Below are positions 3,627 to 49,867 of a stretch of DNA of 64,000 nt, piece by piece; position 1 is the first letter of the stretch, and the number at the start of each line of letters is the position of its first letter. Position numbers and translations under genes: made by a program. Source of the DNA: Methanobrevibacter sp. (GTDB taxonomy: Archaea; Methanobacteriota; Methanobacteria; Methanobacteriales; Methanobacteriaceae); contig NZ_JAZTXC010000109.1 in NCBI RefSeq assembly GCF_045636185.1, positions 3,187-67,186 on the forward strand, in the 5' to 3' direction. The notes under the pieces are model-generated. The model did no database searches, was not told the origin of the DNA, and was given only the letters and a program-made list of their open reading frames with translations.

Positions 3627-4409
3627 ATGAAATATAAAATTCTTGAAAAACCTGAATGTGAAAAAGCATATGAATTAGTTGAAGAGGCTATGCGTAAAAG
3701 AGCCACAATAATTCTTTTTGCATGTTGTAAAGTGGAATATGAGGGACGTGCTTTAAGCCAATTAAACTGGGGAGAACGTATAATACTGATTAAACCAGAC
3801 GGGTCTTTTTTAATACATCAAGATAAAAAAGTGGAACCCGTTAATTGGCAACCGCCAAAATCCAAAACCAGAAGTTATATGAAAGATGACCGCTTAATTC
3901 TTGAAAGTCACAGAAGGACACCAAAAGAATTACTGACTGTTGAGGTAAGGCAAATTCAATTCATCAACTATGCAAATGTTGAAGATTTTGAGGAACTTGA
4001 ACAGGCAGGATACGAAAAGGACATGAGCGACATGATTATGGAAAGACCCCATATTATCGAGGAAGGCTTTACACCAAAAACTAGAGAATATAGTGTCGAA
4101 CACGGTTTTATAGATATTTTAGGAAAAGATAGTGATGGGAATTTAATGATTTTGGAATTGAAAGCACGTAAAGCCGGCGTGAGTGCTGTAAAGCAAATAA
4201 GAAGATATCTGCAGGATCTGGAAAATACAGATAATGATTATCTAAAAGAATGTAAGGCTCAAAAAAAGAGAATCAGGGCAGTATTAGTTGCACCATCACT
4301 TATGGAAGATGCCCGAGAAATGATTGAAGAGGAAGGTATTGAATTTGTCAGCGTTGAACCTCCTCGTGAATTAAAAAGAGATAAAAAAGTTACATTGGAT
4401 GCATTTTAA
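3627..4409 (+). CDS. nucS: Mismatch-specific endonuclease NucS/EndoMS
   Basis: YEGRA, IKPDGSFLIH, PVNWQPP, GFIDILGKD and ILELKARKAG motifs. Confidence 0.96.
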   Translation: MKYKILEKPECEKAYELVEEAMRKRATIILFACCKVEYEGRALSQLNWGERIILIKPDGSFLIHQDKKVEPVNWQPPKSKTRSYMKDDRLILESHRRTPKELLTVEVRQIQFINYANVEDFEELEQAGYEKDMSDMIMERPHIIEEGFTPKTREYSVEHGFIDILGKDSDGNLMILELKARKAGVSAVKQIRRYLQDLENTDNDYLKECKAQKKRIRAVLVAPSLMEDAREMIEEEGIEFVSVEPPRELKRDKKVTLDAF

Positions 4410-4888
4410 TTTAAAACTGCATCATCAATTCTTTTCATTTCTGCTTCATAGAATTTTTTGGTATGTTCATTAGCTGGAATGGATGTGGTTACATGGCATT
4501 CCTTTTCTAATTTATAGATAAGATAAGTTTCATCATCCAAGTCAATTGTGGAATTTTCATCCAACAAATCCAAATTATCCAATTCTTCTATTATTTTATC
4601 ATATTCTTCCTGTTCCAAACTAATAACGTCATCCAATTCCATTTCTTGAACTTTCGGATTCAATTGCAGTGCAATAGCTACGAAACCATTAACTGTTTTA
4701 TCCGAAATATCAAATTGAGATTTTCTAATTTCATCCATAGTAAATTTAATATGAGTTATTGTTGGTTTAGTTACCGGAATTTCTTTTGATAAACCAATTT
4801 GATTAATTTCATAATTATTTTCCCAAGTACCTAATTTATAAACAGCATAATTAATATCATTAACATCAATTTTATTTTCATCTGACAT
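4406..4888 (-). CDS. Acidic hypothetical protein
   Basis: 160-aa ORF with a GGT-containing RBS-like sequence upstream. Its stop overlaps the nucS stop. Confidence 0.7.
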   Translation of the reverse strand: MSDENKIDVNDINYAVYKLGTWENNYEINQIGLSKEIPVTKPTITHIKFTMDEIRKSQFDISDKTVNGFVAIALQLNPKVQEMELDDVISLEQEEYDKIIEELDNLDLLDENSTIDLDDETYLIYKLEKECHVTTSIPANEHTKKFYEAEMKRIDDAVLN

Positions 4889-48545: not shown

Positions 48546-48571
48546 TTAATATTCATGACCAAATAACCTGT

Positions 48572-48613
48572 TATCGGAAATTTGAATGAAACTCCAAAAA
48601 CTTTTTTCCGATA
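48572..48613. terminator. 9-bp inverted repeat between convergent mcm and the Rpn-like gene
   Basis: TATCGGAAA (48572-48580) and TTTCCGATA (48605-48613), with a 24-nt spacer. Confidence 0.3.
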
Positions 48614-48669
48614 CCAGCATATGCATATCTTTCAAATACATTCTATTTAGCGATGGCAACTCATGTTTT

Positions 48670-48903
48670 TTAGTTTAATATTTTCTCAACTTGTTTAATA
48701 TCCATTTTTGTTTTTATTGCAATTTCTTTTATAGTCATTCCAGAATCATATAAGTTTTTTATTATTTCTTTTTTACCTTCAATCATACCCTCTTTCATAC
48801 CTTCAATCATGCCTTCTTTCATACCTTCAATCATGCCTTCTTTCTTACCAATTTCTAATCCATCTTGTTTTTTTAGTTCACCATATTCATATATTGCACT
48901 CAT
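48670..48903 (-). CDS. Putative intragenic in-frame 77-aa C-terminal protein (RpnS-like antitoxin)
   Basis: Inside the Rpn gene the minus strand reads TTGGGTGATCAA-ATG: a GGTGA RBS 4 nt before an in-frame ATG that starts MSAIYEYGELKKQDG. Confidence 0.5.
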   Translation of the reverse strand: MSAIYEYGELKKQDGLEIGKKEGMIEGMKEGMIEGMKEGMIEGKKEIIKNLYDSGMTIKEIAIKTKMDIKQVEKILN

Positions 48904-49563
48904 TTGATCACCCAATAAATATAATAATATATTTTTTAGTTCTTTATTTTCAACAAATTTATCTACCAATAGCCATTCAATACCAAAACATAATCTTTTC
49001 GTTGATGACGGTATATCATTTAATTTAATTAATATATCAGCTGTTTTTTTAATGTTTTGTTCAATGTTTCGATTTTTGGTCATGATTGGAGCTAGTGAAA
49101 AATATATACATTCTTTTCGTGTGATATTAATTTCCTGATTATATTTTTCTTCAATTTCATTAATAATTTTTTCTCCATCAAAAATATCATTTCCAATAAC
49201 GTCATAATTGAAAGTATTTGTATCATTTACTTTATATGAAACTTTTTTTGATTTTTCTGCAGTACTTATTACACAGAGATTTACTTGTTTATCATTTTCT
49301 TTTTTGTAATCGGTAATTGACACATAACAGTGCACTCTTTGTGAAAATTTCTCATTAACTTTTGTACTTTGAAATTCTATTATCAGATTTTCATCATCCA
49401 ACTCCAATATTAAATCCGGCCTGAATGTAGTAGGGTCTATTAATCGCAACTCTTTTGTCCAGATTTTTTTGACATTTGATTTTTTATTTGTAATATTTAG
49501 AAGAATTTCCACATCTTCTTCAGCAATATCCTTAAAAATCATGTCCTCTTGAAATTCAGCCAT
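48670..49563 (-). CDS. Rpn/YhgA-like PD-(D/E)XK nuclease-family protein (recombination-promoting nuclease/putative transposase)
   Basis: FRPDLILELDDENLIIEFQS catalytic region, C-terminal (K/I)EG repeat and an IA..T.M...QV helix-turn-helix-like tail. The ATG at 49563 follows a GGTGGTGA RBS (track start is 49569). Confidence 0.8.
   Translation of the reverse strand: MAEFQEDMIFKDIAEEDVEILLNITNKKSNVKKIWTKELRLIDPTTFRPDLILELDDENLIIEFQSTKVNEKFSQRVHCYVSITDYKKENDKQVNLCVISTAEKSKKVSYKVNDTNTFNYDVIGNDIFDGEKIINEIEEKYNQEINITRKECIYFSLAPIMTKNRNIEQNIKKTADILIKLNDIPSSTKRLCFGIEWLLVDKFVENKELKNILLYLLGDQMSAIYEYGELKKQDGLEIGKKEGMIEGMKEGMIEGMKEGMIEGKKEIIKNLYDSGMTIKEIAIKTKMDIKQVEKILN
48775..48846. repeat. Tandem repeat of 3 x 24 bp (6 x 12-bp subunits) in the Rpn-like gene
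   Basis: ACCTTCAATCATGCCTTCTTTCAT occurs three times with minor variants. It encodes (K/M)KEGMIEG repeats. Confidence 0.9.
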
Positions 49564-49867
49564 ATACAATTCACCACCAATAATCGATATGAAAACTTTA
49601 TTTTAAAAGGTTAAATAGATTGATAATTAAATTAAACTAAGTTAATTTATATAAAAAGAATTTATAATAAGAATATTTATTTTTTATAAGAATATTTTAA
49701 TTTAAAATCAATTTTACTTATCAAAAACAATTTTTTAATCTGATGAAAATAGCTAATATGACTACCACGAACAACCTACTGCAAGTTTCTTTGCATGGAT
49801 AACTTAATAAATGATTAAAATAATATTTAATATATTATACTTATACTAATTTTTATGAGGTGATAAT

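Follow-up and report, generated by a model that had tools for sequence, protein, structure and literature searches.

The subject of this analysis is a gene on the minus strand of a 64,000-nt stretch of Methanobrevibacter sp. DNA (assembly GCF_045636185.1, contig NZ_JAZTXC010000109.1, positions 3,187 to 67,186; this whole stretch is called the window). The gene encodes a protein of 297 amino acids and is located between mcm and the gene for aIF-2beta. We consider it likely that the gene belongs to a Methanobrevibacter-centred, unannotated sister family of the bacterial Rpn (YhgA-like) nucleases and is probably a gene-within-gene toxin-antitoxin pair. The full-length open reading frame (ORF) would encode the RpnL-like nuclease and the last 77 codons, read from an internal in-frame ATG, would provide an RpnS-like antitoxin. 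This reading is supported because every prediction that could be tested at the sequence level held true. The relevant features are given below in the numbering of the window, whose assembly has 32% G+C and is of the Methanobrevibacter type.

48670 to 49563, minus strand: full-length gene, RpnL-like PD-(D/E)XK nuclease with a C-terminal repeat/helix-turn-helix (HTH) domain; based on the ORF (297 codons plus stop), a TIGR01784 match below the cut-off, hhalign and AlphaFold
49572 to 49578, minus strand: Shine-Dalgarno (SD)-like GGTGGTG before the full-length start, 8-nt spacer, predicted pairing with the 16S rRNA tail -10.8 kcal/mol
49543 to 49545, minus strand: Asp7 codon, predicted counterpart of RpnA D11; invariant in 65 homologues (FQED7MIFK compared with TPHD11AVFK)
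49369 to 49416, minus strand: putative catalytic core D50...E63-F-Q65, the Rpn-type D...E-x-Q variant of PD-(D/E)XK; based on conservation and the alignment with RpnA
48906 to 48913, minus strand: internal SD-like site GGGTGATC, codons Leu217-Gly218-Asp219; based on 16S pairing, spacer, conservation and synonymous constraint
48901 to 48903, minus strand: internal in-frame start codon ATG, Met221; based on its invariance, the alignment with RpnA Met244 and the free-standing copies
48670 to 48903, minus strand: nested ORF for the RpnS-like candidate antitoxin, 77 amino acids, 8.73 kDa; based on translation, mass and hhalign of the tail
48766 to 48849, minus strand: tandem 12/24-nt repeats coding for the 4-residue units EGMI/EGMK, tract EGMIEGMKEGMIEGMKEGMIEGKKE; based on Tandem Repeats Finder
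48673 to 48771, minus strand: HTH-like C-terminal end, approximately residues 265-297; based on weak matches to HTH_7, Cbp1 and sigma-70 region 4
48553 to 49798, no strand assigned: inserted segment of ~1,246 nt with the gene, a 117-nt 3' flank and a 235-nt 5' flank, between the mcm stop codon and the promoter region of aIF-2beta; based on BLAST of the empty against the filled site

The original prediction placed an in-frame ATG at 48903, 77 codons from the end of the gene. This start codon is present and is preceded by the SD-like GGGTGATC at 48913-48906; across the site the minus strand reads TTATTGGGTGATCAAATGAGTGCAATA, and the nested product would extend from MSAIYEYG to KILN. The claim that the start lies just ahead of a tail of EG repeats and an HTH was also borne out, as it is followed by the tract EGMIEGMKEGMIEGMKEGMIEGKKE and then by the HTH-like end. 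The proposed similarity to the ribosome-binding sites of other starts stands for aIF-2beta, where GAGGTGATAATATG has the same layout of GGTG, 5 nt and ATG; the full-length gene's own start reads GGTGGTGA with a spacer of 8 nt. For the pairing calculations the anti-SD sequence was taken from general knowledge and is presumed to apply here; the local support for it is that the motifs GAGGT, AGGAG, AGGTG, GGAGG, GGTGA and GTGAT are enriched 5- to 8-fold upstream of the starts of long ORFs in this genome. At the real starts of the genome the distance from GGTG to ATG peaks at 5 nt, with 113 cases compared to 55 for 6 nt and 43 for 7 nt. The predicted pairing of the internal site with the 16S rRNA tail (-11.5 kcal/mol) ranks with the strongest 0.3% among 9,679 internal in-frame ATGs, and it exceeds that of 98% of the proxy true starts.

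In a protein search 134 relatives were found, down to an identity of 42%, and those with a source name came from Methanobrevibacter. The comparisons comprise 112 full-length homologues, 49 related sites in 54 genome loci and 31 distinct intact genes. Conservation of the ribosome-binding site and the Met among relatives had been set beforehand as a check of the original prediction, and the result was in its favour. Met221 is invariant in 112/112 full-length homologues, with Leu217 and Gly218 almost invariant, and the core GGTG is present in 47 of the 49 related sites. These sites read R-GGT-GRN-NNN-ATG, with AGTG in two copies, and the spacer is 5 nt in every site that has the GGTG core.

The codon of Gly218 is GGT in all 31 distinct intact genes. 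For other conserved glycines of the same genes mixed codons were found, namely GGA (11), GGT (10) and GGG (9) for G194 and GGA (14), GGT (9), GGC (7) and GGG (1) for G275. When mapped on a maximum-likelihood tree, the Gly218 codon shows 0 parsimony changes at its third base, compared to 5-15 changes at 16 other conserved four-fold sites. Codon-pair bias was considered as the cause of the frozen GGT and rejected, because in the same context, i.e., Gly before D, G or E, only 47% of the codons are GGT genome-wide. In a sliding scan the gene-wide minimum of synonymous diversity is located at codons 218-222, with an observed/expected ratio of 0.24 vs 0.87 overall. The frozen third base keeps GGTG exactly 5 nt before the ATG. 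Also in the wider family (20-47% identity), 39 of 47 members carry a Met within four columns on either side of the boundary, followed by 4-residue repeats. This pattern is the signature of a functional nucleotide element which overlaps the coding sequence at the place and with the spacing of a ribosome-binding site. As far as comparative data go, it shows that selection keeps the predicted internal SD and the ATG at the nucleotide level, and very probably the 77-residue tail is produced from this gene a second time, as an inhibitor in its own right.

The PD...EFQ nuclease domain that had been claimed for the protein is found in the N-terminal half of the 297-aa ORF as RPD50LILELDDENLIIE63FQ65S. 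Among the homologues D50 and E63 are invariant and Q65 is nearly invariant, and the extended set of D7, D50, E63, Q65 and R76 is invariant or nearly so throughout. Judged from profile comparisons, the gene family is homologous to E. coli RpnA over the full length, although only remotely. When the broad family alignment A2 was compared with the RpnA-family alignment A3 using hhalign, the match reached 95.4% probability (E 2e-8) over 256 columns and covered the full length. The broader A2 was needed for this result, as hhalign against the single RpnA sequence gave no match and the narrow profile A1 against the RpnA family gave 42% on the tail only. In the alignment D7, D50, E63, Q65 and R76 are paired with D11, D63, E82, Q84 and R94 of RpnA. 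Mutation of these RpnA residues abolishes or alters activity; for D63, E82 and Q84 activity is abolished, and RpnA-D11A loses all phenotypes (PMC5350276).

The NCBIfam model TIGR01784 aligns residues 6-295 to positions 2-273 of 273 with a sub-threshold score (E 0.0045, 16.9 bits). Sub-threshold matches to the same model were obtained for 40 of 65 close relatives (best E 1.2e-7) and for 25 of 47 distant relatives (best E 5.7e-12), the distant ones deriving from a profile search of 1.8 billion representatives that gave 556 hits. For the tail, the alignment with the RpnS region of the RpnA family has an hhalign probability of 92.3% (E 5.4e-7), and RpnA Met244 aligns 2-4 residues from Met221. Met244 is the verified internal translation initiation site (iTIS) of E. 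coli rpnA (PMC10400941). A crystal structure of this part of RpnA is available, as the chain of PDB entry 7TH0 comprises residues 244-292 and is the sole PDB match for an RpnA query. PDB sequence searches with the window's protein and with the family profile found no Rpn chain. The AlphaFold model of the full-length protein has a predicted local distance difference test (pLDDT) score of 79 and shows an alpha/beta core at residues 51-123, followed by helices.

In its repeats the tail also resembles the bacterial systems. Tandem Repeats Finder reported a period of 24 with 3.5 copies and 90% matches at 48766-48849, and the 4-residue repeats begin ~13-20 residues after Met221. In Rpn proteins repeats of 4 residues start 8-20 residues after the initiating Met and their number varies among close strains (Zhong et al., PMC10400941). 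In the archaeal family the copy number ranges from 0 to ~7 among homologues, and a single repeat unit separates the window's gene from the syntenic gene of L006, where the MCM and aIF-2beta proteins are 98-99% identical and the Rpn-like protein is only 90% identical. In the structural model of the tail a long helix (3-53) is followed by two short helices (58-65 and 69-76). Foldseek searches with this model gave the HTH domains of IstA, Cbp1 and resolvases as top matches, with a root-mean-square deviation below 1 Å over 32-36 residues and non-significant E-values. Matches to FliH in NCBIfam were dismissed, as they are caused by the EG-rich repeats.

In at least 10 loci (L007, L008, L009, L013, L014, L022, L026, L033, L040, and L047) a separate small ORF downstream of the long gene duplicates the tail. 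The first Met of this small ORF is the conserved Met in L009, L022, L033, L040, and L047. In every pair examined the small copy and the tail of the adjacent long gene have different numbers of repeats. In four other loci (L054, L055, L056, and L048; ~4000-4700 in each locus) the nuclease part is broken or missing and the RpnS-like ORF is intact, starting at the conserved Met with GGTGAT or GGTGAA 5 nt upstream. From their sequence these ORFs look like orphan antitoxin-only remnants.

The window's own genome carries a distant Rpn-like paralogue of 287 aa on contig C157 (24639-25783; L060:713-1827), with an RLDFVV...IECES core and EGRI/EGKI repeats. A free-standing 62-aa tail copy with one repeat fewer is located 62 nt downstream of it. 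In the long gene a GTG codon after GGAGATGAT is found at the residue that matches the Met of the small ORF, and this is a possible nested GTG start. A third Rpn-like remnant on contig C187 (24419-25051; L003/L063) has several stop codons. A 133-aa ORF in it still contains the repeat EGEIKGEIK and ends in an HTH-like segment, and we take the remnant for a probable pseudogene in which only the tail was retained.

The opposite orientation of the gene between mcm and aIF-2beta, as originally described, was confirmed by the ORF map and by comparison with the empty site. In the closest complete genome (G018/L066; MCM 97.7% identical) the site is empty and mcm and aIF-2beta are separated by 93 nt, and in 17 other genomes of the genus this gap is ~90-600 nt. 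Alignment of the empty and the filled site shows that ~1,246 nt replace 14 nt. Neither terminal inverted repeats nor a target duplication were found around this 1,246-nt insert. G018 carries a near-identical family member (E 7e-128) elsewhere (C1:245549-246774), followed by a small downstream tail copy; the empty site together with this second location indicates that the gene changes its place between close strains. In L058 (3656-4582; MCM 98.8% identical) a copy is present at the same site, but it has lost residues ~11-180, i.e., the nuclease core, and has frameshifts in the remainder, which indicates that the gene is dispensable and decays in place. Family members elsewhere are located in unrelated contexts. 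The genomes contain 0-8 copies each, many of them with stop codons. The family is present in 41 of 53 genomes of the genus, in 11 of 12 of a second genus and in 1 of 15 of a third, and in none of the 25 other genera of the order, so that 3 of the 28 genera searched are positive.

Compared to E. coli RpnA-E and the plasmid-borne RpnP2 (Zhong et al. 2023, PMC10400941; Kingston et al. 2017, PMC5350276), the archaeal family has in common the D...E-x-Q core of PD-(D/E)XK with equivalents of D11 and R94, an internal SD with ATG where a C-terminal domain, predicted to be small and helical, begins, and 4-residue repeats soon after the internal Met with a strain-variable copy number. In both cases the genes are single-gene insertions without inverted repeats or target-site duplications, with a patchy distribution and multiple copies. 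The family differs in its archaeal host, in an identity of only ~15%, in scoring below the TIGR01784 cut-off and in lacking matches to PF04754/PF27070. The predicted small product is longer (77 aa) than RpnA-S (49 aa), signs of an internal promoter are not evident, a defence island was not seen in the contexts inspected, and the methanogen system is known here from its sequence. A distant Rpn gene with a working internal start is that of Clostridioides difficile, whose RpnS is expressed in E. coli (PMC10400941); in difference to the present gene it is bacterial and lies within the curated family. Free-standing RpnSs genes of bacteria (ypaA/rpnE-Ss, rpnC-Ss; DUF4351/PF14261) resemble the tail-duplicating ORFs located directly downstream in the Methanobrevibacter loci and behind the C157 paralogue, whose first codon is at the conserved Met or close to it. 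However, the window's gene has no such downstream copy, and the archaeal copies do not match PF14261 and have a repeat number unlike that of the adjacent long gene. In type I-D CRISPR systems Cas11d is likewise a C-terminal fragment produced from an internal start in a larger gene, cas10d, but there the fragment is a required cooperative subunit and no inhibitor, and fold and function are unrelated.

By analogy with the E. coli proteins the following mechanism is proposed. Ribosomes starting at the ATG at 49563 would produce the 297-aa RpnL-like protein, whose N-terminal PD-(D/E)XK domain (D7, D50, E63-x-Q65, R76) is presumed to cut DNA. The internal GGGTGATC, 5 nt before the ATG at 48903, would recruit ribosomes that produce an RpnS-like protein from the last 77 codons only, consisting of one long helix with the 4-residue repeats and a small HTH. 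As in E. coli RpnA/C, the free tail could pair via its repeat helix with the same helix of the full-length protein and keep the nuclease off, and a matching repeat number would give each copy a private specificity. The nuclease would then be freed when the small protein is lost or is released upon virus infection. From this analogy we infer translation of the small protein, toxicity, neutralisation and the antiviral role.

Several observations weigh against an Rpn-type toxin-antitoxin pair. The score of 16.9 bits is far below the curated cut-off of TIGR01784 (52.1 bits), and the Pfam Rpn models PF04754/PF27070 match neither the query nor the 65 close and 46 distant relatives; Pfam matches are limited to weak ones for CoiA_nuc and Yae1_N, and the gene is, by these sequence models, outside the Rpn family as they are now drawn. 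With the full-length model Foldseek found only weak, non-significant PD-(D/E)XK matches (McrC and EndoMS/NucS, E 0.07-0.5), and the RpnA-S structure 7TH0 is absent from the top 50 matches of the tail model. The 16S 3' end was not found in this assembly. The SD is degraded in several of the free-standing copies, and some of these may therefore be decaying. In the scan there is no second dip of synonymous diversity upstream of codon 214 that would indicate a conserved internal promoter, and a TATA-like AT-rich stretch in the window's gene is not conserved; the full-length mRNA may therefore serve as the template for the small protein. In the two contexts inspected the neighbours are housekeeping genes and neither place is a defence island; these are mcm/aIF-2beta in the window and, for P0028, the trp operon together with an Rce1-like/HTH cluster. 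A model for Rpn is lacking in PADLOC, by which RpnA itself is not matched either. Also the chance level of the internal site belongs here, as 2.5% of the long genes hold one internal site that is equally strong and GGTG with a 5-nt spacer precedes ~1% of the internal ATGs. Judged on one sequence alone, the site is therefore suggestive and not decisive, and it is the conservation which lifts it above chance.

These chance levels would fit a gene with a single product, the 297-aa nuclease, in which Met221 and Leu-Gly-(Asp/Gly/Glu) are kept for the protein structure and the SD-like site is a by-product; also the location of the LGxxM motif within a conserved protein block agrees with this. However, constraint on the amino acids cannot explain the third base of Gly218, with 0 vs 5-15 changes and GGT at 47% in the same context, and the synonymous-diversity minimum of the gene falls exactly at the internal site. 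In addition, free-standing genes start at exactly Met221, and for E. coli rpnA initiation at the homologous position has been verified by experiment, so that we regard a single product as unlikely. The small protein could also be made and serve, like Cas11d, as an obligatory subunit, or as a DNA-binding HTH protein that regulates the nuclease or its own promoter, with a role in recombination or DNA mobilisation rather than in defence. The HTH-like end of the tail and the lack of a defence neighbourhood in the contexts inspected are in line with this, and so is the repeat number of the free-standing copies, which is unlike that of the adjacent long gene and by the E. coli rule would not allow neutralisation; Zhong et al. 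also mention other roles of nested genes and possible housekeeping roles. In contrast, the homology and every architectural hallmark fit Rpn systems, in which the small protein has been shown to inhibit the nuclease (PMC10400941). The tail ORF is kept in L054-L056 where the nuclease part is broken, which fits antitoxin-like persistence, and frequent pseudogenes and flux in copy number are typical of toxic or defence genes. A role as subunit or regulator thus appears improbable. A third alternative, in which the gene encodes the autonomous transposase of an IS-like element that entered the space between mcm and aIF-2beta, would account for the single-gene insertion with variable copy number and location, and relatives have historically been annotated as 'putative transposase'. 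However, the 1,246-nt insert lacks terminal inverted repeats and a target-site duplication. Bacterial rpn genes were argued not to be transposases on the same grounds, and autonomous transposases of the PD-(D/E)XK type are not known (PMC10400941); this explanation is very unlikely.

The nested toxin-antitoxin organisation of the bacterial type, which the original prediction had proposed for this methanogen, is supported on the sequence side, with homology, internal start, repeats, free-standing tails and mobility all in agreement. Its novelty in archaea holds in part. Zhong et al. noted COG5464 (Rpn) in two archaeal phyla (PMC10400941), and some archaeal genomes are named in the commentary to that paper, so that the presence of Rpn as such had been recorded; the nested architecture in archaea is unreported in the literature searched, in which no paper links Rpn to Methanobrevibacter.

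Taken by its sequence, the gene is a well-supported further example of an Rpn-type system, in a family now left as 'hypothetical protein'. It would extend the 'antitoxin inside toxin gene' design from bacteria to methanogenic archaea, with evidence for nucleotide-level selection on the internal start, and would provide an archaeal case in which selection acts on SD-led internal initiation. Several hundred 'hypothetical proteins' that are not captured by Pfam/NCBIfam models would receive a name and a testable function, in a family that occurs in most genomes of the genus with up to 8 copies each. For annotation, current gene calls either miss the nested 77-aa ORF and its free-standing small counterparts or list them without a function. 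If the antiviral role is true, rumen methanogens, whose interactions with viruses are poorly known, would have an added defence system. A further-reaching proposal, possible but doubtful at present, is that in rumen and gut methanogens the family functions in antiviral defence by abortive infection, and it would then be the first intragenic toxin-antitoxin system in Archaea. The free-standing tails may in that case not be spare antitoxins, but could be a reservoir for recombinational switching of the repeat number and thus of specificity, or cross-regulators of other copies.

Two further observations were made in the window. An 18-nt inverted repeat at 48563-48622 (83% complementary, 24-nt loop) is located inside the inserted segment, where mcm and the Rpn-like gene converge with 124 nt between their 3' ends, and may be a transcript-end structure. 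On the plus strand adenylation, condensation and thiolation motifs recur within a single ORF of 10,862 aa (13399-45987), which encodes a giant non-ribosomal peptide synthetase and has its end ~2.7 kb from the Rpn-like gene.

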